DNA from: Eledone cirrhosa
Taxonomy: Eukaryota
DNA: 64,000 bases
NCBI GenBank assembly: GCA_964016885.1
Contig: OZ024744.1
Span: 26,474,001-26,538,000, forward strand
Reading direction: 5' to 3'
Part shown: positions 7,887 through 31,254 of the stretch, piece by piece
How positions within the stretch are numbered: the first letter of the stretch is position 1
Layout of the letters: every line of letters begins with the position of its first letter
Notes under the pieces: generated by a model
The model's input: the letters and a program-made list of their open reading frames with translations, nothing else
The model's database searches: none
Told to the model about the DNA's origin: nothing
Translations under genes and position numbers: made by a program

Positions 7887-8371
7887 ATCAGTTTAGCGGA
7901 CGCTTATTATAACGCTTATTATATATATATATATATATGCATGCTACTGTACGTCTGTATACATATATGTATGTACGTATACACACATACTTACATTTAA
8001 GTAAGTGCCGTACTAAGAGTGAGAAATGAAATTTCGTTTTCATTTTATTTCAACTTATCGTTTTCGGTATGCCTGGCCGACTTGACTCACTCGATATGCA
8101 AATTAGGCTGCTCAGCCGTTGATTTTCATAAGGAGGGTATATACTTTCGAACGTTCAACTATCTGGCAGAAGGGTATACGGTGCTGATGATAGCTAACAA
8201 GCTTGAAACTAGTACATCGTTCCTGTGTCAGTGTAGAACAAAAAGGTGACGTGGTTGCCTTAACACCGTACGGCATACAATTCAGGCTTTTCAGTTTGTT
8301 TACAAACGAACGAAGCGGCGTTATAATAAGCGTCCGCTAAACTGATACGTGCATATATGTATGTGTACCTG

Positions 8372-8457
<86 letters not shown>

Positions 8458-8569
8458 TGCTACTGTACGTCTGTATACATATATGTATGTACGTATACAC
8501 ACATACTTACATTTAAGTAAGTGCCGAACTAAGAGTGAGAAATGAAATTTCGTTTTCATTTTATTTCAA

Positions 8570-8574
<5 letters not shown>
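7887..8574 (+). mobile_element. Retrozyme-like non-coding unit (516-bp period, 120-bp terminal redundancy, short inverted 5' piece)
   Basis: 7939-8058 equals 8455-8574 (1 mismatch seen); 7887-7915 is the reverse complement of 8318-8346; internal HHR; (TA)n on both sides. Confidence 0.7.
8163..8231 (+). ncRNA. Type-I hammerhead ribozyme with extended stem I
   Basis: ACGGTG-CTGATGA-T-AGCT(AACA)AGCT-T-GAAA-CTAG-TA-CATCGT (8178-8220), with outer helix CTGGCA/TGTCAG beyond an internal loop. Confidence 0.88.
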
Positions 8575-8650
<76 letters not shown>

Positions 8651-9645: not shown

Positions 9646-10296
9646 CTATCCGTTAGGGTATAACGTGGGGCTGTAATACAGGAAAGTTTTGTGCAATTTA
9701 TGTTTAGAAGCCGAAATTGCCTCAGATTTTTTGTTTAAAATGTGGTCTGTGGCATAGAGTATTTCCAGGGCCTCAGCGGCGCAGAGGTCACATGGTCTTT
9801 TATTTCCGTTATACGATCTAGTCCTAGCTAGGATCTCCCAGTGTAACTTATATTGGGTGTGGTTGTCTTTTAGACTCCAGATATGAGCTGAAAGTGACGT
9901 CATATTCCTTCTTGGAGGGTAACGAAAAGAATGGGTATGCATGTAAAGACGCTGCTTGAAACTATTGGCGGTTAACCCTATGTAGCCCCTACGGGACGTG
10001 GGTGTTACAACCTTACATTTGTAGACAATGTTACTAGAGAGGCATTTCCCGGATAGGGGGCAATCAGCCCGATTCCTACAATTACAGTTAGTACTAACTA
10101 CAAGGTTGCACGTGTTCCTACGGCTAGGTAGTTTAGCTAAATTTGAAGCTGTGATGTTATGTGCAAGGTTAGGAGTCGTAGAGTAAGAAATTTTAATAGT
10201 ATTTCTATTAAAAATTTTACTATATTTATGTGTAGGGGGAAAATGCTTCGTAATAAGGGAAAGAAAGATCTTAGCTAATGGTGTGGTCACCTCCAT
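9646..10296 (-). CDS. PLE C-terminal fragment: Cys-rich linker + GIY-YIG endonuclease
   Basis: KIFNRNTIKISYS, CNCRNRADCPLSGKC, VY..YIG, FKQR, CDLC..E. Confidence 0.85.
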   Translation of the reverse strand: MEVTTPLAKIFLSLITKHFPPTHKYSKIFNRNTIKISYSTTPNLAHNITASNLAKLPSRRNTCNLVVSTNCNCRNRADCPLSGKCLSSNIVYKCKVVTPTSRRGYIGLTANSFKQRLYMHTHSFRYPPRRNMTSLSAHIWSLKDNHTQYKLHWEILARTRSYNGNKRPCDLCAAEALEILYATDHILNKKSEAISASKHKLHKTFLYYSPTLYPNG

Positions 10297-10421
10297 ATTA
10301 TATGGTGGGTTAAACCAAAAAATGCGACGGGATCTATTTCTTATTTCTTCTAGGTCTATTTTCGTACTCTGTATATGCTACCTTATCGACAAATCCACTT
10401 CGAGCAAGAGCTTCATTGTAA

Positions 10422-10537: not shown

Positions 10538-10783
10538 GTATATGTCCAATGTGCTATATATATATATGTCCAGTGTGCTATAAATATATGTATATGTATA
10601 TGTCCAGTGTGCTACATATATATATATAGAGAGAGAGATTTTGAGTTTATGTTGGTTGTATACCAACACCTCAGTACGCAGGCTGGAACACTAGATGAAG
10701 TGCGCAGGTTAGTTTGGTTACTCCGGAGTAGTGTAAAATAAAGTTAAATGAAAGTCAATGATTAAAATTTAGCTTCGTTTATT

Positions 10784-10838
10784 ACTGCTATATATATTTC
10801 AGTGACAGCCATCTTTGGCTGTGACCTCTTCAGGCAGT
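10784..10838 (-). ncRNA. Type-I hammerhead ribozyme (intact) in the inverted pLTR
   Basis: Minus strand ACTGC-CTGAAGA-GGTCACAGCC(AAAGAT)GGCTGTCACT-GAAA-TATATA-TA-GCAGT, then AATAAA. Confidence 0.85.
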
Positions 10839-11445
10839 TTGAATTAGTATGGTATAGACAAGTACATATGTTTTTAGGTGTATAATATTGTCAATACTCT
10901 GATATGCCCAGTTCCTTGTTGGGTTGTTAATTCACTGAGGAACTGGAGTCATATGAATTCAAACAAACGAATTTCAGTGTCAAAGGTCCTCTTCTCCTCT
11001 CATTGGTCAGTTATTATAACATTCCTCATTCTAAGTGTTGTTATTGTTGGAGTTAGCTTAAAAATTGATAAAATGGTAGAAGGGACAAGGTGTTAAAGGA
11101 ACAAAATAACAAAAAAAAATGTCAAACTTCCCATTGGTCAGTTCTGAGACCATTCCTCAGTCAGAAGTCTATAGAATTCTTTCTGGGGTGAGGCTCCCTG
11201 TAGTGTTTTTGCCTGCTATTGTTCAGTACATTTGACCTCTACCATTATTTTGGTAGTGTTGTTGGTGTTGTGGTCAGCTTATATCTTGCTGCTGCTAACA
11301 ATTTAGAAGTATCCAGTTTGTGGTTTTTTTCATCCCTCCTGCCACCATCGTAGTGGTGGTGGTGGGGGTGGGGGGGTGGGGTTATTCCATGTATATGAAG
11401 AAATATAAGGCAATAAATGAAGAAAACAGAAAATAAATAAATAAT

Positions 11446-11631
11446 TGTTTCTACTTTAGGCACAAGGCCAGCATTTATCCAGTGCATTACTGGTACTTTA
11501 TTTTATCGACCCCGTAAGGATGAAAGGCAAAGTCAACCTCGACGGGATTTGAACTCAGATCGTAAAGGGACGTAACTATGCTGGAAAGCATGGCGTCCGA
11601 CCCTCTACCGATACTGCCAATCCACCGCCCT
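11446..11631 (-). mobile_element. tRNA-derived SINE (octopod-like) with 17-bp TSD
   Basis: A-box-like TGGCAGTATCGG, B-box GAGTTCAAATCC; TSD GAAAATAAATAAATAAT at 11429-11445 and 11632-11648; absent from the sister pLTR near 14300. Confidence 0.85.
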
Positions 11632-11848
11632 GAAAATAAATAAATAATATAATAAAATAAATAAATAATATAATAAAATAAATAAATAATATAATAAAAT
11701 AATTAATATAATTTGTTTAATTTGAAAATAAATAAATAAATAGAGAATACTGCATGAGAAAAGTAGGACGAGCTTTATACAACTGGACATCGCAAGCTAC
11801 TACTCCTCAATCTCACCCATAGCACTTAATAAGCCCTTATTTTTAACG

Positions 11849-13693
11849 ATGTCCAATACGGACCTAACCCGAGAGGAGGTGAGCATCATCCACGCAGCAA
11901 GAAAGACCTTAATCCGCTTCGATGGAGACCTTTGGACCAGGAGTGATTGGCCAAATAACTTTGACATCACGATGGGCTCCAGCGACTCAGCGCAGGTAAC
12001 GGATCTGGTTGGGCTCTACCTGCTGAAGCAGATAAAAGATGAAATCCCCTGCCTGGGCGGCGGATTATATCGTGACGATGCTCTATTCACAGTATATGAC
12101 CACAGCACCAATATGTTGGAGGTTATGAGGAGGCGTATTCTCCATTTCTTTAAGAACCAGAGGCTCAGCATAGAAATAGACCCAAATAGGAAGACAGTTA
12201 ACTTCCTAGACACCACCCTAAACCGGAACACCGAGCAATACTATCCCTACCACAAGCCCAACGAGAAACTCGTATATGTTAACGCCAAATCAAACCACCC
12301 TAGATCCATAACCAAGGCAGTGGTGAAGAGTGTCTCGGACAGGATCTCCAGCCTGTCCGCAAGTAAGGAAATATTCAACAACCACGCGGAATATTATAAC
12401 GCAGCTCTAAAGAAGGCGGCACATGGACAAAATATAACATATAGTCCGAAAAGCCGGGAGGTGGATAGCCCAACAGACACCCACAACCGCGTTGCCCGAG
12501 GGGGGAGGGCGAACCCTAACAATACAGGCAGAGCAGAATCAAATAGGCACCATGTACCCGACACCACCACACTGGCGGTGGGGACTAGTGCGCTTGACCA
12601 CGAGATGGAACACAATATGAGTAGCAGTCTCAGGCGTGACGCTAACCACCCCAGGACGGACGACACCAACCGCAGGACACGTTGGGGGGGATGCGGGCGA
12701 CCACCCCACGATGGATCTCCCGGGGCGGACAACGACCACCCCACAAATTCGGGCCGCGAAGCTAACAAAAAGCATAGAGCCCAATGGGGAAGCAACAGTG
12801 CGGAAACCACCAGCAATCCAACAAATCTCCAACAAATCACGAAGCCCCCGACCCACACATATAGGAGGAGACACCGACAAATCACGTGGTACAACCCACC
12901 CTACTCAGCGACCCTAAAGAAAAGCTTGGCCCGATTATTCTTTGGAGCACTTGACAAATGCTTCCCGAGGGACCACAGATACCACAGGATCTTCAACAGA
13001 CACACTGTGAAGCTTTCGTATTCCACCACGAGAAATTTGGCCCGACACATAGCTAGCATCAACAGAAGTAGGCTTAAAAACCACACACAACCAGAAGATG
13101 GCAATACAAACACTCAGCAGAACCATGTGAAAGGAGGGAAGGGGGGACCCAGAGCCCACCCAAGAAACCCAAACAGACCCGAGGACCCCCCACCGAGCCT
13201 GGGGGAAGACCAACATGTAACACATAACGGGAAGCCTAATCTAGGCACGCAGAGGCCGACCACCCTCTGCAACTGCAGAAACCCCGAATCATGCCCCCTT
13301 GGTAATGAATGCCTCAAGAAGAACCTAGTGTACGGTTGTAGGGTTAAAACCCCCAACTCCGAACACCTCTACATAGGTGCCACATCAACGAGCTTTAAGG
13401 ACTGCTGGTACAACCATCGCCATTCATTCAAGAAGGAGGCCAAAAGGAAAAGCACAGCCCTCTCCGACCTGATCTGGAAGCTTAAGCTGGACAGGACCCC
13501 ATACTTTCTGGCCTGGTACATAATCAGGAAAGTACTACCCGATAAAGGGGGATCTTGCATATGCAAACTATGCCTGAACGAGACCCTCGAGATACTAAGA
13601 GGTGAAAGCGGCCTGATAAACCTCAGAACCGACTTCTTCGGGACATGCAGACACCTTAGAGCCGGGACCTTTCTCAAGATATATGGACAGTAG
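11849..13693 (+). CDS. PLE reverse transcriptase (C-terminal part) + linker + GIY-YIG endonuclease
   Basis: FDITMGSSDSAQ, GLYRDDAL, VNFLD, WYNPPY, CNCRNPESCPLGNEC, LVY..YIG, CKLC..E; FIQLDIASYYSSI lies frameshifted just upstream (~11770). Confidence 0.92.
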   Translation: MSNTDLTREEVSIIHAARKTLIRFDGDLWTRSDWPNNFDITMGSSDSAQVTDLVGLYLLKQIKDEIPCLGGGLYRDDALFTVYDHSTNMLEVMRRRILHFFKNQRLSIEIDPNRKTVNFLDTTLNRNTEQYYPYHKPNEKLVYVNAKSNHPRSITKAVVKSVSDRISSLSASKEIFNNHAEYYNAALKKAAHGQNITYSPKSREVDSPTDTHNRVARGGRANPNNTGRAESNRHHVPDTTTLAVGTSALDHEMEHNMSSSLRRDANHPRTDDTNRRTRWGGCGRPPHDGSPGADNDHPTNSGREANKKHRAQWGSNSAETTSNPTNLQQITKPPTHTYRRRHRQITWYNPPYSATLKKSLARLFFGALDKCFPRDHRYHRIFNRHTVKLSYSTTRNLARHIASINRSRLKNHTQPEDGNTNTQQNHVKGGKGGPRAHPRNPNRPEDPPPSLGEDQHVTHNGKPNLGTQRPTTLCNCRNPESCPLGNECLKKNLVYGCRVKTPNSEHLYIGATSTSFKDCWYNHRHSFKKEAKRKSTALSDLIWKLKLDRTPYFLAWYIIRKVLPDKGGSCICKLCLNETLEILRGESGLINLRTDFFGTCRHLRAGTFLKIYGQ

Positions 13694-14892
13694 CAACACA
13701 AGAATATGTGAAATCCCCTCAAGCTATAGGGACTTCTACAGAACATGAAAACACCTCTCGGCCAGACCTCCCTCAAGCTATATGGGCAATAACAACACCC
13801 TAGGTTGTGAACTCCCCTCAAGCCATAGTGAACAACCCAGGCGGAGCAGACACCATGATAGCCTAGAGATAGAATCGGACACAGGCATAATAATTTGGCC
13901 AACATCTATAACAAACACTTTTAATTTACTAGATTTCTGATTTTCAAGTTCCAATCTTAAATCTTGATTTCTCTTTATTAATTTGTTATTTGTTTTCTGC
14001 CCTCTTCTGCCCTCTTCACCTTATATTTATTTTTAAGTTGAGATTGATTATAACACAAACACATTTAGTTTGAATATATCATCTTAACATCTTGTCTCAT
14101 ACCAATCTATCCAACATATTCTGACCTTGAGATTGGTTGTAACGCACACGCACACTTTATCCTACATTATTTCTCACTTCTCCATATTCATTTTCATTAC
14201 TTTTTCACCAATTTTTTATTTATTCTTTATTCTTTATTCTCTATTTATTTATTTATTTTCAAATTATACAAATTATATTAATTATTTTATTATATTATTT
14301 ATTTATTTTCTGTTTTCTTCATTTATTGCCTTATATTTTTTCATATACATGGAAGAACCCCCATCCCACCCGCACCACTACGATGGTGGCAGGAGGGATG
14401 AAGAAAAAACACAAACTGGATACTTCTAAATTGTTAGCAGCAGCAAGATATAAGCTGACCACAACACCAACAACACTACCAAAATAATGGTAGAGGTCAA
14501 ATGTACTGAACAATAGCAGGCAAAAACACTACAGAGACACTCACCCCAGAAAGAATTCTATAGACTTCTGACTGAGGAATGCTCTCAAACTGACCAATGG
14601 GAAGTTTGACAATTTTTTTGTTATTTTGTTCCTTTAACACCTTGTCCCTTCTACCATTTTATCAATTTTTAAGCTAACTCCAACAATAACAACACTTAGA
14701 ATGAGGAATGTTATAATAACTGACCAATGAGAGGAGAAGGGGACCTTTGACACTGAAATTCGTTTGTTTGAATTCATATGACTCCAGTTCCTCAGTGAAT
14801 TAACAACCCAACAAGGAACTGGGCATATCAGAGTATTGACAATATTATCAACCTAAACAACATATCTACTTGTCTATACCATACTAATTCAA

Positions 14893-14947
14893 ACTGTCTG
14901 AAGAGGTCACAGGCAAAGACGGCTGTCACTGAAATATATATAGAAGT
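14893..14947 (+). ncRNA. Hammerhead in the 3' pLTR (stem I partly eroded)
   Basis: ACTGT-CTGAAGA-GGTCACAGGCAAAGACGGCTGTCACT-GAAA-TATATA-TA-GAAGT. Confidence 0.75.
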
Positions 14948-14991
14948 AATAAACGAAGCTAAATTTTAATCATTTGACTTTTATTTAACTT

Positions 14992-15025
<34 letters not shown>

Positions 15026-15157: not shown

Positions 15158-15312
<155 letters not shown>

Positions 15313-15319
15313 GTACAAA

Positions 15320-18192
15320 CAAATTTCAAAGCCATCCGTGCTGATCGCGCTGGCAGAAGAAAGGGTGGGACTGCCATTTATGTCCATAATTCTTTCTCAA
15401 CAGAGGCTATGAACATATTTTCTAATGGATACTGCGAAGCAGTCACTGTATTCAGTCAAACCAACAACCTAATAGTAGTTGGGCTCTATAGGCCACCCCA
15501 AACGCCTCTACCATGCTTCAAGGAATGTCTCAACAGCATAAAGTGTTTCATCCAAGAGTGTCACCCTGACAACATCTTAATGATGGGGGACTTCAACCTC
15601 CCCGGAGTTTACTGGTCCACAAACAGCCTGCCACCAGGTTCTTCTGCCTCAACCTCTGACAGGGAAGCAGTGGAATCGCTTCTTGACTTCATGGATGATT
15701 TCTTCCTGTCCCAACTGGTGCTCCAACCAACGAGGTGCCACAAAAACGTCCTAGACTTAATTTTCAGCAATCACACTGACAATATCCACAATATTGCAGT
15801 GGAGAAAACTCTACTCTCTGATCATGACATGGTTCTCTGTGATCTGAGATTCCACCGTCCAATATACAAACCCAATGTCATCTCTCCTGTCCATCCGTTT
15901 GACGCTATGGATTTCCACAATGCAAACTGGGAAGCGATCAGTCATGATCTTGCACATGTCGACTGGTCCTTCACGCACACTCATACACCCACTAACATAA
16001 AAAAGTCCTGGCAGACATTTGTGGACACTGTTACAAACATATGTGCAAAACACCCCCCATTAAGAACTATAAACAAATCTAAGAGCAGAATCCCTAGAAA
16101 TAGAAAAACGCTCATCAGGAAAATTAAGAGAACGAACAAAATAATCAACAAGCTGAAATACCGTCAGCAGCAACACATCAACTTGACTGCCATTTCATCC
16201 CTAGAGATTAAAAAACATAACCTCCAAAACAACATGATGTCTATCATCAACAATCAGAGAAGAGCTGAAGAGACCTAGGCCACTGAGAATATCAAACTCA
16301 ATCCCAAAGTGTTCTTTTCATTTGCAAAAATACACAAAATCAGTGGCTCTACTGTTGGCCCTCTAATTGATGAAAATGGCACTCTTCAAGACAATGCTAA
16401 AACCATGGGTGAGATACTGCAGAAACAATACTGCTCTGTTTTCAGCAATCCTGATATGGCCGATCTGGACTGTATCGGCGATGTTACTCCCCATTACACC
16501 TTATCAGACATAACGTTTGGCGCCCCTGATGTCTTAGCGGCAATAAAGGAAATCAAGCATAATTCAGCAGTAGGTCCCGATAGGTTCTCTGCTTGTGTCT
16601 TGAAGGCGTGTCAACACCAACTTGCATCTCCTCTTGCCAATCTGTGGCGGAACTCACTGGATGCTGGATATGTGCCAGAAAACCTTCTATCCCAGTCTGT
16701 TGTCCCAGTTTTCAAAAAAGGAAACAAATCCCTTGCCGTGAATTACCGTCCAATCTCACTCACCTCTCATATCATTAAGATATTTGAGAGAGTGGTGAGA
16801 TCGCGAATGACCCACTTCCTTGAGAGTAACAATATGCTGAACTCCAACCAGCATGGATTCCGTAATGGAAGGGATTGCCTGACGCAGCTACTGCATCACT
16901 TTGATGACATTTTGAGAGCCTTGGGAGAGGGTTCCAACACTGATGTTATCTACCTTGATTTCAGCAAGGCCTTTGACAGGGTTGATCACAAATTTCTACT
17001 GAGAAAACTGTCCAATATTGGTGTCACTGGAAAGCTGCTGCAGTGGATCAAGAGCTTCCTGTCAAGCAGAACCCAACATGTTGTAGTTGAAGGAGTCAAA
17101 TCCAGCCCAGCCAAAGTCAGTAGTGGGGTCCCACAAGGCACTGTGTTGGGCCCACTTCTCTTCATCATCTATATTAATGACATCACTGACTTCATCAAAC
17201 ACAGCAACATTAAAATTTTCGCTGATGATTCCAAGCTCCAAAAGGTCATCAATGGCGTGGATGACCGGATAAGCCTTCAGTCAGACCTACTGGCTGTTAC
17301 CCAATGGTCGGAAAAGAACAACATGTTACTGAACGAAGACACATTCGAACTGATCCACTTTGGAAAAGAGGATGCTCTGAAACTCCCGTACTCCCTTCCC
17401 TCCGGTGAAACTTTCGTGGCATCTAATAACATCAGAGACTTGGGAGTAACCGTGGACAGCAACATAAGCTGGGCCACGCATATAAGCAGCAAAGTTGACA
17501 TGGCCCGCAGAATGTGTTCCTGGATCCTCAGAACCTTCCAGTCGAGAGATTCCCACACCATTATCCATCTCTTCTCTACTTTTGCCCGACCACACCTTGA
17601 ATACTGTTGTCCACTGTGGTCTCCCCACACTAAACAAAGTATCATGAAACTTGAAGCTCCTCAAAGAGCAATCACTAAAAAGATAGATGGCATGTCAGAC
17701 CTTGACTACTGTGGTCGACTAGAAAAGCTGAAACTTTACTCACTCCAACGTCGCTGTGAGCGTTATATTATCTGCATGATGTGGAAAATGTTTCATCATC
17801 ACTGCCCAAATGATATTGGCATCACCTTCAAAATACACCCAAGGCTTGGGCCCCGTGCTATCCGTCCCAAACAAAAATCTAAATCGCAACTCATAACAAC
17901 AATACGGCACAATTTTTTCACCTCAATCGGCCTTGCTCTCTTCAACATCACACCAGGACACGTCAAAACAGAAACTGACCACACAAAATTCAAGAAGTCT
18001 TTGGACAAATTCCTCCAAGTAATCCCGGACAAACCACCCACACCCGGATATGTCTCCGCAAACAGTAATTCTCTTCTCGAATGGGCCATGGTGCCCAAAT
18101 CCTGAATTGAAAGACTTCGCCAGGTGGTGCTATTAAGTTAGACATGGCCTGGGCCAATACTGGCCAAAACATTTCAAAGTTATTCAAAGTTA
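15320..18192 (+). mobile_element. CR1-group LINE copy 2 (APE + RT), 5'-truncated
   Basis: Highly similar to 3264-5919; one frame with a single TGG->TAG stop at 16276; same tandem 3' tail. Confidence 0.92.
16309..18105 (+). CDS. LINE ORF2 reverse transcriptase domain and C-terminus
   Basis: YRPISLTS, QHGFR, YLDFSKAFD, SGVPQGTVLGP, FADD, RDLGV, RPHLEY. Confidence 0.9.
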   Translation: MFFSFAKIHKISGSTVGPLIDENGTLQDNAKTMGEILQKQYCSVFSNPDMADLDCIGDVTPHYTLSDITFGAPDVLAAIKEIKHNSAVGPDRFSACVLKACQHQLASPLANLWRNSLDAGYVPENLLSQSVVPVFKKGNKSLAVNYRPISLTSHIIKIFERVVRSRMTHFLESNNMLNSNQHGFRNGRDCLTQLLHHFDDILRALGEGSNTDVIYLDFSKAFDRVDHKFLLRKLSNIGVTGKLLQWIKSFLSSRTQHVVVEGVKSSPAKVSSGVPQGTVLGPLLFIIYINDITDFIKHSNIKIFADDSKLQKVINGVDDRISLQSDLLAVTQWSEKNNMLLNEDTFELIHFGKEDALKLPYSLPSGETFVASNNIRDLGVTVDSNISWATHISSKVDMARRMCSWILRTFQSRDSHTIIHLFSTFARPHLEYCCPLWSPHTKQSIMKLEAPQRAITKKIDGMSDLDYCGRLEKLKLYSLQRRCERYIICMMWKMFHHHCPNDIGITFKIHPRLGPRAIRPKQKSKSQLITTIRHNFFTSIGLALFNITPGHVKTETDHTKFKKSLDKFLQVIPDKPPTPGYVSANSNSLLEWAMVPKS

Positions 18193-18194
18193 TA

Positions 18195-18459
18195 CACTGG
18201 ACATATATCTATATATCTCTCTCTCTATATATATAGCACACTGGACATATATATATACATATATATAGCACACTGGACATATATATGTATATATAAAGCA
18301 CACTGGACATATATACATATACATATAGCACACTGGACATATATGTATATTTATATATAATAAAGTTAAATAAAAGTCAAATGATTGAAATTTAGCTTCG
18401 TTTATTACTGCTATACATATTTCAGTGACAGCCACCTTTGGCTGTGACCTCTTCAGACA

Positions 18460-18460
<1 letters not shown>
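18195..18460 (-). repeat. Inverted copy of the pLTR end (HHR at 18407-18460) plus adjoining GTCCAGTGTGC/(TA)n units
   Basis: Reverse complement of ~14893-15160, including matching spacer variants. Confidence 0.8.
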
Positions 18461-18654: not shown

Positions 18655-21245
18655 GGAATTACATAGGAAATACAAAAAAACAAATGAGGCATTGATAAAC
18701 ATCAACAACGAGGTATACAATATAGTCAAACACCTAGGAATAGACGAGAGAACGGAGCCACTTAGGCCATGTACCCCCACATTTAACCTCAAGGACCACA
18801 AGGTAAATTTTGATTATAACCCCACAATTAGACTTATATGCTCGTCCAAATCGGACATCGGGAAAATTAGTAAACATATATTAGACAGAGTGATTGCACA
18901 AATGAAGAATAAACTATTCATTAAACTATGGGGTAACGCTACCGAAACAATTAAGTGGTTTAACAATATAGCTAACAAAGAAGTATCTAAATTTATACAA
19001 TTTGACATTAACGATTATTACTCATCTATATCCCCCAACACCTTGGATAAAGCCTTAGCATTCGCCAAAGCCAATTCTGACATAACAGACGACGAGATAA
19101 AAATCATATTAGCTGCTAGGAAAATAATAATTACATTTTAAAACGCCTATTGGGAACGTCTGGATAGATTAAATAACTTTGACATCACGATGGGGGCTAA
19201 CGACTCGGCTCAAGTCACAGATTTAGTAGTTATTTACATAGGCCATAGTTTACAAAGTGAGTTTAGCGACCTTCACGGTGGAATCTACAGAGACGGCGCC
19301 CTTCTCCTAGTTAAGAACCTAAATAACCAGAGCATAGAAAGACTCCGAAAGAATATTAGAAAGACTCTCGGAAAACTAGGCCTTAGCATAACGTATGAGT
19401 ATAGCACTAAAACAGTTAACTTTCTAGACGTGACGCTTAACCTAAATACGGGACTTATAAGACCTTTTCACAAGATTAATGAAAACTTAGCATACATCAA
19501 CTATAACTCAAACCACACACTATCCATAATTAAATCCATTCCACGCAGCATATCACTTAGGATCTCCCGCCTCTCGTCTAACCGACAAATCTTCGAAGAA
19601 CATGCAGAATACTACAATACCGCATTAGACAAGGCAGGCCACTTAGATAGAGTAGAATATATAGATGAAAGCCTCCGTGAAGCGCACACGAATACACATA
19701 ACACAAACTCCGGTAACACACGCACACACGCACTTACGCATAGAACTGCAAAGTATACGGCAAATAGAAATACAACATCGAAATCAAACAAGTCACGCAG
19801 TAGAAAATATATTTGGTATAACCCCATATTTAACACCTCTATTAGTACTAACCTACCCTCTACCGTCTTTAGAATAATAAATAAGCACTTTCCAGATTCA
19901 CATAGATACAGCAAAATCCTTAACACTAAATCTATTAGACTATCTTACTCCACGGCACCAAATATAGAGGCACACATTAAGATGCTTAACGCTAAAAAGA
20001 TACATAACAACACCAAAAAACAAATTTACAACAATAATAATACAATCAACACCGAACACAACAGATATCTAATACACAACCACCCGCTAATAGGCAAACA
20101 AAACGTAACACACTTGTACAGGCATCGCAGCCCACAAATAATGCCAAAGTTGCCCATGACAAGAACTGTAACTGCCACCTACCTGAAACCTGTCCATTAC
20201 ATAATGAATGTATGCAGTCTAACCTGGTTTACCAATGCACAGTGGAATCAGACAACCAGAAATGGTATTACATCGGAGCGACTGGGAATACATTTAAAGC
20301 CCGTTGGTTTACACACCGTTACGCAATGAAACATTCCCAGCACCGTTATGTAACTACCCTTGCAAACAAGACCTGGCAACTGAGGGAAAGTAACCATCAA
20401 TACACCCTGAAGTGGAAAAAATTATCGAACGCGCCCCCATATCGAAGTGGTATGAGAAGCTGCCGATTATGCGACCTTGAGCTGTTCCACATCTTAAGCT
20501 CGAAGAATAAGTTACTCAACAATAAAATCGAAAGATCAATTTATTGTAACCATAGACTCAAAGAGAAGTTTTCGCACTACAAATCGAACCCTTAACCTCT
20601 TACTACCAACTGACAAACTGCATATACTTAGACTTTATACCCTCTTGTTGTATCTAAACCCTTTTAATTACCCACAAAACCAATACATATATCCCCCTCT
20701 TCTCCCTCATTGCTCTTCTATTTCTTCGTTTTCTTCCTTCCCTCCCCTTCTTGGCTATCTTTTCTTCTTTCTCACCCCCTTCTTTGCTTTTATTTTTGTC
20801 ATTATTATCTTTATCTTTATTTTATATATATATATATATATTTACCTCTTTATATCTCCCCCCTCTGTCCCCTCACCTTCTGATTCCTCTCTCTATATAC
20901 TAGTAAATACAATTCCAAATAAATGTTTTTCTCTATATATTAAGAATTATTTCAAGAGTAACTTACTATTTTGAAAATTTGGACTGTGAACAACAATTGA
21001 GTGGCTGCTATTTGCAGTATAGCAATATAAGGTTGCACTTACCAATGAAACGGTCGTAAATACCTGGATAAAATCCTTCTCGTAATGCTTACCTGTGTTT
21101 TCTCTTTTATACTTTATACTCCAAGATTGAACGAAATTCTTACAAACTTGTGGAGTTACCCCTAACCGTACGTTGAAACCTTCCATGAAACTGGCTTTCT
21201 TAACCAAGAACTGGATCACAATATGCAATATTTTGCTTCTCTAAC
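18655..21245 (+). mobile_element. Penelope-like element, decayed (RT + GIY-YIG)
   Basis: LKDHK..F..NPTIRLI, FIQFDINDYYSSI, FDITMG, IYRDG (DD->DG), WYNP, LVYQC..YYIG; stop at 19139 and a frameshift before the Cys linker; (TA)n at both ends. Confidence 0.9.
18692..20595 (+). pseudogene. PLE ORF in three pieces (18692-19141, 19190-20329, 20212-20595)
   Basis: Collinear RT, linker and endonuclease motifs. Confidence 0.88.
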
Positions 21246-22079
21246 TATATATATATATATGTCCAGTGTGCTATATATATTTAAGTATATATGTCCAGTG
21301 TGCTATATATATATGTATATGTCCAGTGTGCTATATGTATATATATGTCTAGTGTGCTATATATATATATAGCACTCTGGACACACACATCCCTACTGAC
21401 CACACACATTCACACACACATCCCTACTGACCATTATCACAACAATGAACCTCTTTACTACACCCACACACATATTTGTCTTAAAAGACTTATTTTTCAG
21501 TGACTTCTCAATCAGGCGAAAAAGGATACTCTTCGACAAACCTACATTTGGCGCTAAATCAATTTTTAACATTCACGTGACCTCTACCGACCAATCAAAA
21601 TTGTTTTGACCACAATAATTTTTGCAACACGAATTGGCGCGAAACTTATTTTAATACCTCTGGAGCCACTTTTTTCACATAAAACAGGTAGAATTTCCAA
21701 AACTAATCAGTTTAGAGCAAACATCACGGGCGCTCTATCTCAAAAATATTTTTGAAAAGCATTAGAAATGCGCAACCGGTAAAAACTTAAAACTAAAACT
21801 GAATACTAACCAATACTTATTACTAATTTTTACTTATTCCTAATTAAACTATTTTTCTCTGGGAACAATTTGTCAGCATTTTCTTTTCCTTTTACATATA
21901 TATATATATGTTTATTATAAACATACAGAATATTTTCGAATATTCTATGTCTATATTCACATATATATCGCTATTTCAGAGCATTTATTCCAATTTCTAA
22001 TTTCTGCCGGACCGGCAACCGCTCTTTCAAACCAGTTCCTGTACACAGCTAAGTATTCTATAAGTCTCTAGCTGTGTCA

Positions 22080-22166
22080 TTCTCGATAAAAGCACTGGAT
22101 ATGTAGTCCTGATGATTTCTAACGAGAATGAAACGCGTAGATTACTTCCCTTGCTTTTATCGAGAA
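22080..22166 (+). ncRNA. Type-I hammerhead ribozyme, copy 1
   Basis: GTAGTC-CTGATGA-T-TTCT(AACG)AGAA-T-GAAA-CGCG-TA-GATTAC; 15-bp outer helix TTCTCGATAAAAGCA/TGCTTTTATCGAGAA. Confidence 0.92.
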
Positions 22167-22389
22167 TCTAATTGTAATACGTGACGTATTCTATTCTATA
22201 GCGATTAGGTCTTCAAAATGTTTATTATAAACATACAGAATATTTTCGAATATTCTATGTCTATATTCACATATATATCGCTATTTCAGAGCATTTATTC
22301 CAATTTCTAATTTCTGCCGGACCGGCAACCGCTCTTTCAAACCAGTTCCTGTACACAGCTAAGTATTCTATAAGTCTCTAGCTGTGTCA

Positions 22390-22476
22390 TTCTCGATAAA
22401 AGCACTGGATATGTAGTCCTGATGATTTCTAACGAGAATGAAACGCGTAGATTACTTCCCTTGCTTTTATCGAGAA
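22390..22476 (+). ncRNA. Type-I hammerhead ribozyme, copy 2
   Basis: Same as copy 1, +310. Confidence 0.92.
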
Positions 22477-22699
22477 TCTAATTGTAATACGTGACGTATT
22501 CTATTCTATAGCGATTAGGTCTTCAAAATGTTTATTATAAACATACAGAATATTTTCGAATATTCTATGTCTATATTCACATATATATCGCTATTTCAGA
22601 GCATTTATTCCAATTTCTAATTTCTGCCGGACCGGCAACCGCTCTTTCAAACCAGTTCCTGTACACAGCTAAGTATTCTATAAGTCTCTAGCTGTGTCA

Positions 22700-22786
22700 T
22701 TCTCGATAAAAGCACTGGATATGTAGTCCTGATGATTTCTAACGAGAATGAAACGCGTAGATTACTTCCCTTGCTTTTATCGAGAA
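22700..22786 (+). ncRNA. Type-I hammerhead ribozyme, copy 3
   Basis: Same as copy 1, +620. Confidence 0.92.
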
Positions 22787-23053
22787 TCTAATTGTAATAC
22801 GTGACGTATTCTATTCTATAGCGATTAGGTCTTCAAAATGTTTATTATAAACATACAGAATATTTTCGAATATTCTATGTCTATATTCATATATATATAT
22901 ATATACATATATATGTCCCGTGTGATATATATATATATATATGTATGCAGTGTGCCATATATATATATATATATATATATTTTCCTGTCTGATATATATA
23001 TATGTACGTATATGTCCAGTGTGTTATATATACATATGTATATGTCCAGTGTG

Positions 23054-23158
<105 letters not shown>

Positions 23159-23281
23159 GGAGGTGAGTTTTATTGTAGTACAATAAAGCAATGCAGATAT
23201 CGGATAAGAAGCACTCTACAGTTTGTAGGACTGGAGTATACATAATATAAGATCAAAAGATGGTTAAAGGAGTTCCATGTA

Positions 23282-23348
23282 TTTTATTATGCGCATTTCA
23301 AAAACAAACATCATCATGCAATAATATTTGTGTTTTCATCAGATAAAA
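23282..23348 (-). ncRNA. Type-I hammerhead ribozyme (left arm)
   Basis: Reverse complement of 23460-23526. Confidence 0.82.
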
Positions 23349-23459
23349 CAGGAGAACATGATATGAAGGCTAAAAACACTTGTGGATAGTGCAGTTGATA
23401 TGTTGATTTAAAACTGCACTATCCACAAGTGTTTTTAGCCTTCATATCATGTTCTCCTG

Positions 23460-23526
23460 TTTTATCTGATGAAAACACAAATATTATTGCATGATGATGT
23501 TTGTTTTTGAAATGCGCATAATAAAA
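23460..23526 (+). ncRNA. Type-I hammerhead ribozyme (right arm)
   Basis: TTTTAT-CTGATGA-AAACACAAATAT...ATGTTTGTTTTT-GAAA-TGCGCA-TA-ATAAAA. Confidence 0.82.
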
Positions 23527-23579
23527 TATATGGAACTCCTTTAACCATCTTTTGATCATATATTATATATATATATATA

Positions 23580-26500
23580 TATGTCCAGTTTGCTATATAT
23601 ATATATGTCCAGTGTGCTATATATATGTGTATGTGTGCAGTGTGCTATATATATGTATATATGTGTATGTGTACAGTGTGCCATATATATGTATGTGTAT
23701 GTGTACAGTGTGCTATATATATGTGTATATGTGTGCAGTGTGCTATATATATATATGTGTGTATGTGTACATTGTGCTATATATATGTATGTGTCCAGTG
23801 TGCTATATATATGTGTGTATGTGTCCAGTATGCTATATATGTGTGTATGTGTGCAGTGTACTATATATATGTGTGTATGTGTCCAGTATGCTATATATGT
23901 GTGTATGTGTGCAGTGTGCTATATATATGTGTGTATGTGTCCAATGTGCTATATATGTGTGTATGTGTGCAGTGCGCTATATATATGTGTGTATGTGTGC
24001 AGTGTGCTATATATATGTGTGTATGTGTCCAGTGTGCTATATATATGTGTGTGCAGTGTGCTATATATATGTGTGTATGTGTGCAGTATGCTATATATAT
24101 GTGTGTATGTGTCCAGTGTGCTATATATGTGTGTATGTGTCCAGTGTGCTATATATGTGTGTATGTGTGCAGTGTGCTATATATATATGTGTGTATGTAT
24201 GTGTGCAGTGTGCTATATATATGTGTGCAGTGTGCTATATATATGTGTGTATGTGTGCAGTGTGCTATATATATGTGTGTATGTGTGCAGTGTACTATAT
24301 ATGTGTGTATGTGTCCAGTGCGCTATATATGTGTGTATGTGTCCAGTATGCTATATATGTGTGTATGTGTGCAGTGTGCTATATATGTGTGTATGTGTGC
24401 AGTGTGCTATATATATGTGTGTATGTGTCCAGTGTGCTATATATGTGTGTATGTGTCCAGTATGCTATATATGTGTGTATGTGTCCAGTATGCTATATAT
24501 GTGTGTATGTGTGCAGTGTGCTATATATATGTGTGTATGTGTGCAGTGTGCTATATATGTGTGTATGTGTGCAGTGTGCTATATATATGTGTGTATGTGT
24601 CCAGTGTGCTATACATAAGTGTGTATGTGTGCAGTGTGCTATATATGTGTGTATGTGTGCAGTGTGCTATATATATGTGTGTATGTGTGCAGTGTGCTAT
24701 ATATATGTGTGTATGTGTACATTGTGCTATATATAAGTGTGTATGTGTCCAGTGTGCTATATATGTGTGTATGTGTGCAGTGTGCTATATATGTGTGTAT
24801 GTGTCCAGTATGCTATATATGTGTGTATGTGTGCAGTGTGCTATATATATGTGTGTATGTGTCCAGTGTGCTATATATGTGTGTATGTGTGCAGTGTGCT
24901 ATATATATGTGTGTATGTGTCCAGTATGCTATATATGTGTGTATGTGTCCAGTGTGCTATATATGTGTGTATGTGTGCAGTGTGCTATATATATGTGTGT
25001 ATGTATGCAGTGTACTATATATATGTGTGTGTGTGTGCAGTGTGCTATATATGTGTGTATGTGTGTAGTGTGCTATATATATGTGTGTATGTGTGCAGTG
25101 TGCTATATATGTGTGCAGTGTGCTATATATATGTGTGTATGTGTGCAGTGTGCTATATATGTGTGTGTATGTGTGCAGTGTGCTATATATGTGTGTGTAT
25201 GTGTGCAGTGTGCTATATATGTGTGCAGTGTGCTATATATATATGTGTGTATGTGTCCAGTGTGCTATACGTAAGTGTGTATGTGTGCAGTGTGCTATAT
25301 ATATGTGTATGTGTCCAGTATGCTATATATGTGTGTGTATGTGTGCAGTGTGCTATATATGTGTGTATGTGTACATTGTGCTATATATATGTGTGTATGT
25401 GTGCAGTGTGTAATATATATATATATATGTGTATGTGTGAAGTGTGCTATATATATGTGTGTATGTGTGCAGTGTGCTATATATGTGTGTATGTGTGCAG
25501 TGTGCTATATATATGTGTGTAAGTGTGCAGTGTGCTATATATGTGTGTATGTGTCCAGTATGCTATATATGTGTGTATGTGTGCAGTGTGCTATATATAT
25601 GTGTGTATGTGTGCAGTGTGCTATATATATGTGTGTATGTGTGCATTGTGCTATATATATGTGTGTACGTGTGCAGTGTGCTATATATATGTGTGTATGT
25701 GTCCAGTATGCTATATATGTGTGTATGTGTGCAGTGTGCTATATATGTGTGTATGTGTGCAGTGTGGTATATATATGTGTGTATGTGTCCAGTGTGCTAT
25801 ATATGTGTGTATGTGTCCAGTGCGCTATATATATGTGTGTATGTGTGCAGTGTGCTATATATATGTGTGTATGTGTCCAGTGTGCTATATATATGTGTGT
25901 ATGTATGCAGTGTGCTATATATATGTGTGTATGTGTCCAGTATGCTATATATGTGTGTATGTGTCCAGTATGCTATATATGTGTGTATGTGTCCAGTATG
26001 CTATATATGTGTGTATGTGTCCAGTGCGCTATATATATGTGTGTATGTGTGCAGTGTGCTATATATGTGTGTGTATGTGTCCAGTATGCTATATATGTGC
26101 GTATGTGTCCAGTATGCTATATATGTGTGTATGTGTGCAGTGTGCTATATATATGTGTATGTGTCCAGTGTACTATATATATGTGTGTATGTGTCCAGTG
26201 TGCTATATATGTGTGTGTATGTGTCCAGTGCGCTATATATATGTGTGTATGTGTCCAGTATGCTATATATGTGTGTATGTGTGCAGTGTGCTATATATGT
26301 GTGTATGTGTGCAGTGTACTATATATATGTGTGTATGTGTCCAGTGTGCTATATATATGTGTGTATGTGTCCAGTATGCTATATATGTGCGTATGTGTCC
26401 AGTATGCTATATATGTGTGTATGTGTGCAGTGTGCTATATATATGTGTATGTGTCCAGTGTACTATATATATGTGTGTATGTGTCCAGTGTGCTATATAT

Positions 26501-29500
26501 ATGTGTGTATGTGTCCAGTGCGCTATATATATGTGTGTATGTGTCCAGTATGCTATATATGTGTGTATGTGTGCAGTGTGCTATATATGTGTGTATGTGT
26601 GCAGTGTACTATATATATGTGTGTATGTGTCCAGTGTGCTATATATATGTGTGTATGTGTCCAGTGTGCTATATATATGTGTGTATGTGTCCAGTATGCT
26701 ATATATGTGTGTATGTGTGCAGTGTGCTATATATATGTGTGTATGTGTGCAGTATGCTATATATGTGTGTATGTGTGCAGTGTGCTATATATATGTGTGT
26801 ATGTGTGCAGTGTGCTATATATATGTGTGTATGTGTCCAGTATGCTATATATGTGTGTATGTGTCCAGTATGCTATATATGTGTGTATGTGTGCAGTGTG
26901 CTATATATATGTGTGTATGTGTGCAGTGTGCTATATATATGTGTGTATGTGTCCAGTATGCTATATATGTGTGTATGTGTCCAGTATGCTATATATGTGT
27001 GTATGTGTGCAGTGTGCTATATATATGTGTATGTGTCCAGTGTACTATATATATGTGTGTATGTGTCCAGTGTGCTATATATATGTGTGTATGTGTCCAG
27101 TGCGCTATATATATGTGTGTATGTGTCCAGTATGCTATATATGTGTGTATGTGTGCAGTGTGCTATATATGTGTGTATGTGTGCAGTGTACTATATATAT
27201 GTGTGTATGTGTCCAGTGTGCTATATATATGTGTGTATGTGTCCAGTGTGCTATATATATGTGTGTATGTGTCCAGTATGCTATATATGTGTGTATGTGT
27301 GCAGTGTGCTATATATATGTGTGTATGTGTGCAGTATGCTATATATGTGTGTATGTGTGCAGTGTGCTATATATATGTGTGTATGTGTGCAGTGTGCTAT
27401 ATATATGTGTGTATGTGTCCAGTATGCTATATATGTGTGTATGTGTCCAGTATGCTATATATGTGTGTATGTGTGCAGTGTGCTATATATATGTGTGTAT
27501 GTGTCCAGTGTGCTATATGTGTGTATGTGTCCAGTGTGCTATATATATATATGTGTGTGTATGTGTGCAGTGAGCTATATATATATATATGTGTGTATGT
27601 GTGCAGTGTGCTATATATATGTGTGTATGTGTGCGGTGTGCTATAATTGTGTATGTGTCCAGTGTGCTATATGTGTGTATGTGTCCAGTGTGCTATATGT
27701 GTGTATGTGTGCAGTGTGCTATATATATGTGTGTATGTGTGCAGTGTGCTATATATGTGTGTATGTGTACAGTGTGCTATATATATGTGTGTGTATGTGT
27801 GCAGTGTGCTATATATATGTGTGTATGTGTGCAGTGTGCTATATATATGTGTGTATGTGTCCAGTATGCTATATATGTGTGTATGTGTGCAGTGTGCTAT
27901 ATATATGTGTGTATGTGTGCAGTGTGCTATATATATGTGTGTATGTGTCCAGTATGCTATATATGTGTGTATGTGTGCAGTGTGCTATATATATGTGTGT
28001 ATGTGTGCAGTGTGCTATATATATGTGTGTATGTGTCCAGTATGCTATATATGTGTGTATGTGTGCAGTGTGCTATATATGTGTGTATGTGTGCAGTGTG
28101 CTATATATATGTGTGTATGTGTGCAGTGTGCTATATATATGTGTGTATGTGTCCAGTATGCTATATATGTGTGTGTATGTGTGCAGTGTGCTATATATGT
28201 GTGTATGTGTCCAGTATGCTATATATGTGTGTATGTGTGCAGTGTGCTATATATATGTGTGTATGTGTGCAGTGTGCTATATATATGTGTGTATGTGTCC
28301 AGTGTGCTATATATATGTGTGTATGTGTGCAGTGTGCTATATATATGTGTGTATGTGTCCAGTGTGCTATATATATGTGTGTATGTGTGCAGTGTGCTAT
28401 ATATGTGTGTATGTTTCCAGTATGCTATATATGTGTGTATGTGTGCAGTGTGCTATATATATGTGTATGTGTGCAGTGTGCTATATATATGTGTGTATGT
28501 GTCCAGTGTGCTATATATATGTGTGTATGTGTGCAGTGTGCTATATATGTGTGTATGTGTGCAGTGTGCTATATATATGTGTGTATGTGTCCAGTGTGCT
28601 ATATATATGTGTGTATGTGTGCAGTGTGCTATATATAAGTGTGTATGTGTCCAGTATGCTATATATGTGTGTATGTGTGCAGTGTGCTATATATATGTGT
28701 GTATGTGTGCAGTGTGCTATATATATGTGTGTATGTGTGCAGTGTGCTATATATGTGTGTATGTGTGCAGTGTACTATATATATGTGTGTATGTGTGCAG
28801 TGTGCTATATATATGTGTGTATGTGTGCAGTGTGCTATATATATGTGTGTATGTGTCCAGTGTGCTATATGTGTGTATGTGTCCAGTGTGCTATATATAT
28901 ATGTGTGTGTATGTGTGCAGTGAGCTATATATATATATATGTGTGTATGTGTGCAGTGTGCTATATATATGTGTGTATGTGTGCAGTGTGCTATTATTGT
29001 GTATGTGTCCAGTGTGCTATATGTGTGTATGTGTCCAGTGTGCTATATGTGTGTATGAGTCCAGTGTGCTATATATATGTGTGTATGTGTCCAGTGCGCT
29101 ATATATGTGTGTATGTGTCCAGTATGCTATATATGTGTGTATGTGTGCAGTGTGCTATATATGTGTGTATGTGTGCAGTGTGCTATATATATGTGTGTAT
29201 GTGTGCAGTGTGCTATTATTGTGTATGTGTCCAGTGTGCTATATGTGTGTATGTGTCCAGTGTGCTATATGTGTGTATGTGTGCAGTGTGCTATATATAT
29301 GTGTGTATGTGTGCAGTGTGCTATATATGTGTGTATGTGTACAGTGTGCTATATATATGTGTGTGTATGTGTGCAGTGTGCTATATATATGTGTGTATGT
29401 GTGCAGTGTGCTATATATATGTGTGTATGTGTCCAGTATGCTATATATGTGTGTATGTGTGCAGTGTGCTATATATATGTGTGTATGTGTGCAGTGTGCT

Positions 29501-31015
29501 ATATATATGTGTGTATGTGTCCAGTATGCTATATATGTGTGTATGTGTGCAGTGTGCTATATATATGTGTGTATGTGTGCAGTGTGCTATATATATGTGT
29601 GTATGTGTCCAGTATGCTATATATGTGTGTATGTGTGCAGTGTGCTATATATGTGTGTATGTGTGCAGTGTGCTATATATATGTGTGTATGTGTGCAGTG
29701 TGCTATATATATGTGTGTATGTGTCCAGTATGCTATATATGTGTGTGTATGTGTGCAGTGTGCTATATATGTGTGTATGTGTCCAGTATGCTATATATGT
29801 GTGTATGTGTGCAGTGTGCTATATATATGTGTGTATGTGTGCAGTGTGCTATATATATGTGTGTATGTGTCCAGTGTGCTATATATATGTGTGTATGTGT
29901 GCAGTGTGCTATATATATGTGTGTATGTGTCCAGTGTGCTATATATATGTGTGTATGTGTGCAGTGTGCTATATATGTGTGTATGTTTCCAGTATGCTAT
30001 ATATGTGTGTATGTGTGCAGTGTGCTATATATATGTGTATGTGTGCAGTGTGCTATATATATGTGTGTATGTGTCCAGTGTGCTATATATATGTGTGTAT
30101 GTGTGCAGTGTGCTATATATGTGTGTATGTGTGCAGTGTGCTATATATATGTGTGTATGTGTCCAGTGTGCTATATATATGTGTGTATGTGTGCAGTGTG
30201 CTATATATAAGTGTGTATGTGTCCAGTATGCTATATATGTGTGTATGTGTGCAGTGTGCTATATATATGTGTGTATGTGTGCAGTGTGCTATATATATGT
30301 GTGTATGTGTGCAGTGTGCTATATATGTGTGTATGTGTGCAGTGTACTATATATATGTGTGTATGTGTGCAGTGTGCTATATATATGTGTGTATGTGTGC
30401 AGTGTGCTATATATATGTGTGTATGTGTCCAGTGTGCTATATGTGTGTATGTGTCCAGTGTGCTATATATATATGTGTGTGTATGTGTGCAGTGAGCTAT
30501 ATATATATATATGTGTGTATGTGTGCAGTGTGCTATATATATGTGTGTATGTGTGCAGTGTGCTATTATTGTGTATGTGTCCAGTGTGCTATATGTGTGT
30601 ATGTGTCCAGTGTGCTATATGTGTGTATGAGTCCAGTGTGCTATATATATGTGTGTATGTGTCCAGTGCGCTATATATGTGTGTATGTGTCCAGTATGCT
30701 ATATATGTGTGTATGTGTGCAGTGTGCTATATATGTGTGTATGTGTGCAGTGTGCTATATATATGTGTGTATGTGTGCAGTGTGCTATTATTGTGTATGT
30801 GTCCAGTGTGCTATATGTGTGTATGTGTCCAGTGTGCTATATGTGTGTATGTGTCCAGTGTGCTATATGTGTGTATGTGTGTATGTGTGCTGTGAGCTAT
30901 ATATATATATATATATGTGTATGTGTACAGTGTGCCATATATATGTATGTGTCTATGTGTGCAGTGTGCTATATATATGTGTGTGTATGTGTGCAGTGTG
31001 CTATATGTGTGTATG
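23580..31015 (+). repeat. ~28-30-bp satellite GTGTGTATGTGT(G/C)CAGT(G/A)TGC(TA)3-4T with higher-order repeats
   Basis: ~7.4-kb uninterrupted array; rare variants recur at 290, 582 and 1572 bp spacing. Confidence 0.97.
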
Positions 31016-31254
31016 TTGTGTGTTCATTCATAGCATCCAATTAACAGCAATCATCTAAAAACTGTTTCCCGTTATGTTCTTCAACTTACCATGCACCATT
31101 GAGCAACACATTAATCTGTCTTCATTATTCTCTTATCTATCATCGACAATTCACCAGTTTTTACTATCATATCTCTTCCTCCCCCACTCCCCGCTCTTCC
31201 TGCTCCTCCCCCTCCCTTTGACACTACCTCTCTACCACCCCTCCATCCCCTTCT

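Follow-up and report, generated by a model that had tools for sequence, protein, structure and literature searches.

A young hammerhead retrozyme family in Eledone cirrhosa whose insertions resemble those of Penelope-like elements

Introduction

Metazoan non-long-terminal-repeat (non-LTR) retrozymes, described from coral, mussel and axolotl, are tandem arrays of 150-450-bp units, each with a type I hammerhead ribozyme and a weak palindromic stem III, with a GC content below 50%, no open reading frame (ORF) and thousands of copies (Cervera and de la Pena 2020, PMC7229834; Li, Clavereau and Pollet 2026, bioRxiv 10.64898/2026.07.22.740005; here and below, cited work is represented by the portions of its text accessible to us). 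The same two papers propose mobilisation by Penelope-like elements (PLEs) and tandem cDNA templated by a circle, and a further report finds no motif in retrozyme repeats that points to a mobilising element (PMC7761336). Here we analyze a 64,000-bp stretch of the Eledone cirrhosa genome (assembly GCA_964016885.1, contig OZ024744.1, 26,474,001-26,538,000, forward strand), hereafter the window, which contains a perfect array of 310-bp hammerhead units. The family to which this array belongs shares every retrozyme feature listed above and, on the features tested, is a non-LTR retrozyme as judged from its sequence; RNA circles have been demonstrated for metazoan retrozymes, and a circle is predicted here from genomic DNA for the 310-nt family. 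We think it likely that a PLE reverse transcriptase (RT)/endonuclease, supplied in trans, inserted the array by copying a 310-nt RNA, probably a circle, of this young, non-coding family, and our confidence is higher for twin priming of the PLE type than for the monomer circle.

Endonuclease-bearing PLEs leave an inverted, 5'-truncated copy set head to head, a tail of 30-40 bp, and a bias toward (TA)n (Craig et al. 2021, PMC8557442; Arkhipova et al. 2013, PMC3846280), and an anole PLE protein cut and extended both target strands in vitro, the tail being bounded by two internal RT start sites (Frangieh et al. 2024, PMC11167929). The PLE cycle is nevertheless described as undefined (PMC8557442). 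The 310-nt family resembles these insertions in its head-to-head inverted copy and tail, in its (TA)n targets (as in the Hydra and Naiad clades), and in start sites ~85-165 nt past the hammerhead cut; it differs in having no ORF and many whole units in both arms. In nearly all two-armed 310-nt loci one end, and one only, carries the tail that the PLE papers call optional. Non-autonomous Chlamys elements such as MRC1 (PMC8557442) are likewise non-coding PLE passengers with multicopy head-to-tail insertions, but they come from green algae, their 3' ends resemble those of autonomous partners and their clade mostly lacks hammerheads, whereas no similarity to a partner was found for the 310-nt unit.

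In their accessible portions, the two metazoan retrozyme papers describe no inverted two-armed insertions, fixed 3' ends, tail or locus-wide haplotypes, and the text of PMC7229834 uses 'inverted', 'opposite', 'orientation' and 'microsatellite' 0 times. Our literature search, with subscription journals and supplements outside its scope, returned no cephalopod report, and no report of PLE twin priming or circular templates describing such insertions.

Results

A dispersed family of 310-bp units

Period-310 identity in the window array is exact over 982 bp (3 units plus 52 bp, or 3.17 units; 0 mismatches), and Tandem Repeats Finder (TRF) returned period 310 with 3.2 copies. The unit has 34.5% GC, and on the circle its longest stop-free frame is 59 amino acids (aa) and its longest ATG frame 30 aa; (TA)n flanks the array on both sides. 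These results bear out the original prediction of three identical 310-bp units with a ~52-bp overhang, no ORF and (TA)n at both ends. Unit positions are numbered from the first base after the predicted cut.

Copy numbers were obtained as sequence-pattern matches in the 3.0-Gb assembly, in which control patterns had 0 matches. Exact matches to a 43-base pattern of the window haplotype number 4,033, and 17,957 ribozyme cores are found with a degenerate core pattern, equivalent to ~5.6 Mb (17,957 × 310 bp) or 0.19% of the assembly. Unit-to-(AT)6 junctions on the forward strand were counted at two places, ~130 (site A, 659 junctions) and ~165 (site B, 757). Forward-strand counts were used since reverse-strand counts are inflated by multiple counting; doubled, they give ~1,300-1,500 clean-ended insertions, and ~10 units per sampled insertion gives ~1,800, so that the overall estimate is roughly 1,300-1,800. 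Arms span 0.2-30 units in the sampled insertions. The array is therefore no single-locus curiosity, and the expectation of a young, dispersed, non-coding tandem hammerhead family with variable unit number and (TA)n targets is supported. Of four sequencing runs examined as contigs, X1 and X2 each contained a single contig of 340 nt identical to the unit; a collapsed DNA array would produce it as readily as a circle, and we did not use it as evidence.

Most insertions have two arms and two fixed ends

We sampled a discovery set of 61 insertions. Because 20 of its loci had been picked for closeness of A and B ends, a validation set of 85 regions was drawn on the A end only. Before counting, we dropped a truncated duplicate of L133 and one of the duplicated pairs in L079 and in L290, merged the halves of L310 across an N gap, and excluded L232, L267 and L310 from the 5'-end count. 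In the discovery set, 48/61 insertions are two-armed, with a minus arm followed by a plus arm and their 5' ends meeting. Forty-five of these 48 pair one A end with one B end by a scripted rule and 2 more by their exact ends; 1 is unclear, and there are 0 A/A and 0 B/B pairs. The remaining 13/61 are one-armed, 10 of them ending at A. In the validation set, an opposite arm ending near B was present in 77/85 regions (B ends span 154-172, 44/77 exactly at 165), 6 were one-armed, 2 ran off the fetched stretch, and 0 were A/A.

The inner junctions (n = 47) share 0-5 bases in 29 cases and 16 bases in 1, and carry 1-23 inserted bases in 16 and 272 in 1. Both flanks are (TA)n-rich in 42/48 two-armed loci, and for this reason a target-site duplication is unreadable there. 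Arms exceed one unit in 91% and two units in 81% of 152 cases, and A arms and B arms do not differ in length (P = 0.17). All 146 insertions consist solely of unit sequence, with no layout of LTRs around an internal region. The variable start phase originally predicted is confined to the 5' (inner) ends. The 3' ends stop at one of two fixed sites, and the usual insertion is a pair of inverted arms, something that the one-armed window copy could not reveal.

The family therefore shows the features of the PLE-type footprint: an inverted 5'-truncated head-to-head copy, a 35-nt tail at one end, and a microsatellite target. From the inverted copy, the tail and the (TA)n targets we infer a PLE enzyme acting in trans. 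The link to PLEs in the retrozyme papers was drawn from common hammerheads, co-occurrence and similarity to the pseudo-LTR (pLTR), whereas here it is drawn from the insertion footprint. An inverted arm was looked for at the window's own locus and none was found, so that the inverted copy of the footprint is absent there; the window copy belongs to the minority of insertions that retained the site-A arm alone.

A probable single-unit template

Only 1/109 5' ends (3.5 expected) and 4/158 (5.1 expected) fall 5 nt or less from the cut site. On a linear cut monomer, cDNA would stop at position 1; since the 5' ends do not pile up at the cut site and 91% of arms exceed one unit, the template was not a linear cut monomer. 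Among 1,422 crossings of the cut site (507 + 915), 1,349 have the reference sequence, 68 have one of three lineage variants, and 5 have stray substitutions.

The 146 insertions (454,543 nt) contain 194 singleton variants and 48 distinct locus-fixed variants, 28 of the 48 being private. Seventeen private variants, in 16 loci, fill every copy (4-22) of both arms, and the probability that two loci share a haplotype is 0.15. These private variants require one unit to have templated the whole locus, which a monomer circle would do directly, and rolling-circle copying of one monomer is the best reading of the arrays. A test for A-to-I editing of the template gave fixed A>G 11 vs. T>C 7 and singletons 11 vs. 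24 (Fisher P = 0.046), but private fixed variants 5 vs. 5. At L073 (476-4486), A276G, at a UAG site in stem I, is present in 7/7 A-arm passes and in only the last 2/6 B-arm passes; either a template switch or editing in the course of copying may lie behind this pattern.

The hammerhead and its predicted fold

Each of the 3 units carries a type I hammerhead with core and three stems. Stem I consists of an inner GTAGTC/GATTAC helix (6 bp), an internal loop, a 3-bp GGA/TCC helix, and a 15-bp outer stem. The ribozyme had been called canonical, and its CTGATGA/GAAA/GTA core and outer stem I are indeed present, but position 10.1-11.1 is a non-canonical U.U and the Rfam models miss it. The covariance-model scan proposed for it gave 0 matches at gathering and, at E <= 10, only 4 chance matches, none a hammerhead, an outcome that we ascribe to the limits of these models. 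A ribozyme in both polarities would be a mark of a viroid-like RNA replicon; a CTGANGA core was looked for on the minus strand of the 310-nt unit and none was found. The predicted palindromic stem III exists as ACGCGT but has only 2 bp with a 2-nt loop. In folding predictions for the monomer, the pairing probability is 0 for stem III and 0.15 for stem II, and an intermolecular stem III duplex between two units has -9.5 kcal/mol; stem III likely needs a dimer, a dependence that folding predicts. The 310-nt circle folds at -67.8 kcal/mol, compared with -48.5 ± 4.4 in 100 shuffles (lowest -60.3), i.e., 4 standard deviations below. All hairpins named in the original prediction occur in the sequence, but TGCCGG/CCGGCA and AATACGT/ACGTATT, which in the form given would have loops of 1 nt, fold with one pair fewer.

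Sequence constraint and older relatives

None of the 48 locus-fixed variants falls on the 12 core or 17 tail-motif positions, vs. 15 of the 194 singletons (7 core, 8 motif; P = 0.009, post hoc). Relatives only 70-80% identical keep the layout and both end sites, and the 17-nt tail motif has 24,477 exact copies genome-wide. Among 20 aligned family members, two-sided changes occur in 22/32 pairs; the members were selected with a core pattern, so that core invariance in the alignment is partly built in. Covariation is 0.453, vs. 0.267 when shuffled (0/500) and 0.115-0.136 when slid, a figure inflated by the relatedness of the members and by a structure model derived from the window sequence itself. 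There are 734 copies of a subfamily with U3-A8 and G10.1-C11.1; the U3-A8 swap is reported for PLE hammerheads (PMC4209133).

Older relatives (L153-L164, L195-L228) have stronger-looking ribozymes (3-5-bp stem III, G10.1-C11.1, U3-A8) and mostly short arms; compared with them, the young 310-nt family has the weakest-looking ribozyme and yet the longest arrays. At least 10 other hammerhead core types occur in the 1.17 Mb of fetched DNA, a second U3-A8 type being seen 16 times (overlapping loci counted).

Neighboring PLEs and the search for a partner

A Hydra-type PLE occupies 10640-14997 of the window, with a plus-strand frame at 11744-13693, a hammerhead at 14898, and an inverted end with a hammerhead at 10833. 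It ends 52 and 153 nt past its ribozyme, giving a tail of ~100 nt, longer than the 30-40 bp of the PLE papers, and a further inverted stub lies at 18361-18460. The family of this frame ends 52-61 and 150-163 nt past its hammerhead, and it too is two-armed and two-ended, with ends ~100 nt apart (both in 4/8 fetched loci). Intact Hydra-type ORFs (894 and 893 aa) with the two-armed, two-end layout exist in the genome. The 894-aa relative has the RWK, DKT, CxCx5C, CxxC and CxH motifs that mark the (TA)n-targeting Hydra clade (PMC8557442); the clade was assigned by comparing motifs with that paper and from Atlas neighbors carrying RVT_1/GIY-YIG. Pfam names none of the 5 PLE frames. Further broken Hydra-like RT/GIY-YIG frames lie at 9646-10377 (-), 18656-20595 (+) and 58086-58466 (-), and two RT queries gave 26,456 and 30,531 first-look candidates, with relatives having open frames of up to 918 aa.

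A second retrozyme family is represented in the window by a copy at 7940-8575 (+), with a hammerhead core at 8184 and 10,384 exact cores genome-wide. Its units are ~466-540 bp in tandem and inverted arms, with the same U.U at 10.1-11.1 and a palindromic stem III, and its ends lie at 257-261 and 318-320 of a 476-nt unit. End spacings thus differ among the 310-nt, 476-nt and Hydra families, and tail length is therefore family-specific.

The array had been proposed to be rolling-circle cDNA integrated by the neighboring PLEs. Rolling-circle copying is our best reading and the footprint is of PLE type, but the neighbors share no DNA with the unit, and the PLE whose ends were measured has a ~100-nt, not a 35-nt, tail; a role of the neighboring PLEs in its integration is not supported, and shared targets explain their proximity.

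Table 1. Coordinates, in window numbering, of the 310-nt insertion and its parts
Feature	Position	Strand	Comment
One-armed retrozyme insertion, 3.17 identical 310-nt units	21908..22889	+	Begins (5') at unit position 79 and stops (3') at site A (130)
Hammerhead 1 with extended stem I	22080..22166	+	Predicted cut after 22139, where GAAACGCGTA ends
Hammerhead 1 parts	inner stem I 22103-22108/22140-22145; CTGATGA 22109-22115; stem II 22116-22129; GAAAC-GC-GTA 22130-22139	+	
Hammerhead 2	22390..22476	+	CTGATGA starts at 22419; predicted cut after 22449, where GAAACGCGTA ends
Hammerhead 3	22700..22786	+	CTGATGA starts at 22729; predicted cut after 22759, where GAAACGCGTA ends
Predicted 310-nt monomer/circle	22140..22449; second one 22450-22759	+	RNA form inferred
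35-nt tail between site A (130) and site B (165)	22270..22304; other copies 21960-21994, 22580-22614	+	
17-nt tail motif	22277-22293	+	Within tail copy 22270..22304; common to relatives only 70-80% identical
Left (TA)n target	21897..21907		Lies where another high-copy repeat ends; locus lacks an inverted arm
Right (TA)n-rich target	22890..23155		Microsatellite, hence target-site duplication unreadable

Discussion

We have proposed that a PLE enzyme copied a probably circular RNA. The tandem array would be transcribed, and adjacent units would pair their ACGCGU stems into a dimeric hammerhead that cuts after GUA; a host ligase would close the 310-nt monomer, in which the ribozyme is expected to be largely off. 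A GIY-YIG endonuclease, probably of the Hydra clade, would then cut both strands in (TA)n, the sequence in which the insertions lie, and, with each of the two DNA ends as primer, cDNA synthesis would start at a different internal site of one RNA, leaving the one A and one B end observed. The enzyme would roll round the circle from both primers, and the cDNA ends would be joined head to head by microhomology repair. Some very long arrays, those with repeated partial variants, may have been amplified locally afterward. As to whether one enzyme complex holds a single RNA circle, primes both cut ends at two dedicated start sites, a different one for each DNA end every time, and rolls both ways, we put the chances at about even.

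The usual template for the same twin priming could instead have been a linear multimer, long and uncut, transcribed from a source array, with circles rare or absent. Seamless junctions and scattered 5' ends fit such a template equally well, and the variants at L134 and L238, confined to the first pass of both arms, favor it, as do the weak look of the ribozyme and the anole protein's acceptance of unprocessed RNA in vitro (PMC11167929). For some events an uncut multimer is indeed possible, given these last two points and the report that 1/9 frog dimers cleaved (2026 preprint). As the usual template, however, it would need a single-unit bottleneck to account for 17 private variants in all 4-22 copies of both arms at 16 loci, and fixed variants avoid the catalytic core. 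Singletons, moreover, recur between loci 32 times in pairs, vs. at least 20 expected by chance (930 possible substitutions), so that source mosaics are not visibly handed on. We consider this alternative unlikely. An insertion of about one unit per arm, expanded later by unequal crossover or slippage in the manner of a satellite, is quite improbable. The long arrays L133, L232, L267 and L048 do show repeated partial variants and a 7-unit period, the arms of older relatives are mostly short, and local amplification of a PLE end is proposed in the 2026 preprint (bioRxiv 10.64898/2026.07.22.740005), but both arms are multi-unit with uncorrelated lengths, partial variants are absent in most loci, and private variants are common to opposite arms.

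The unit might also be the pLTR of a coding PLE and the arrays truncated ends of that element, which would leave an identical footprint; 146 sampled insertions might miss a parent of low copy number. An arm that exceeds one unit, however, always re-enters the unit, and beside the 146 insertions and 30 relative loci (a sample of the genome) there is neither recurring foreign or coding sequence nor an RT plus GIY-YIG ORF joined to the repeat. Two tblastn matches at relative loci proved to be separated or oppositely truncated neighbors, and a profile of the tail run over 1,169,272 fetched bases (1.17 Mb) found family members and short, weak AT-rich matches only, and no partner. The original prediction had named such a pLTR as what would overturn it; we hold this very improbable.

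Several observations weigh against PLE copying of a monomer circle as we have proposed it. The ribozyme looks weak from its U.U at 10.1-11.1 and its predicted stem II probability of 0.15, cleavage was seen in just 1 of 9 frog dimers (2026 preprint), and uncut RNA served the anole PLE in vitro. At five loci both arms carry the same non-fixed variant; in two of these, L134 and L238, it is limited to the first pass of each arm, unlike the expectation from a monomer circle; and A276G is mosaic at L073 (9/13) and L075 (12/13). In arrays of 12-30 units partial variants are repeated, so that their length does not all come from reverse transcription, which points to later local amplification. No partner PLE was found among the Hydra families of 11744-13693 and 18656-20595 and the flanks of relatives; the unit has no DNA similarity to the former by blastn at word size 7, and the Hydra family measured has a tail of ~100 nt, not 35 nt. 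All sampled young loci except that of the window lie on one contig (C1), and the core-pattern selection and window-derived structure of the 20-member alignment count on the same side.

The ~1,500 young insertions constitute a counted footprint, with strict start-site pairing, seamless multi-unit arms and locus-wide private variants. They are genomic evidence, at the level of sequence, for a mechanism that the accessible metazoan retrozyme literature has only proposed. They also make the circle-template model testable, since the RNA is short and defined, a cis motif is at hand as a candidate, the target sequence is known, and the genome itself contains intact Hydra-type ORFs; the family is an ongoing source of long inverted repeats. 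If the proposal is true, twin priming on a single circle would explain PLE tail, inversion and tandem structure together, and animal retrozymes would be circular-RNA passengers of PLEs. The 17-nt motif with its hairpins would then be the cis signal loading any small circle onto a PLE enzyme, and the thousands of 310-nt insertions a genomic record of the Penelope transposition reaction.

Other features of the window

A near-perfect inverted repeat at 23250-23570 has a CTGATGA...GAAA motif at 23342 on the minus strand and another at 23466 on the plus strand, and is probably the head-to-head end of another PLE-type element. It is followed by a 30-bp satellite with 254 copies (23602-31022) and a 21-kb degenerate (TTGG)n array (31833-53023). 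Frames of the long interspersed nuclear element (LINE) type lie at 3301-5830, 15300-18105 and 62368-63657 (+); RVT_1 was detected at 16279-18105 with E = 1.8e-29, and a zf-RVT match at 62368-63657 fell below the cut-off.
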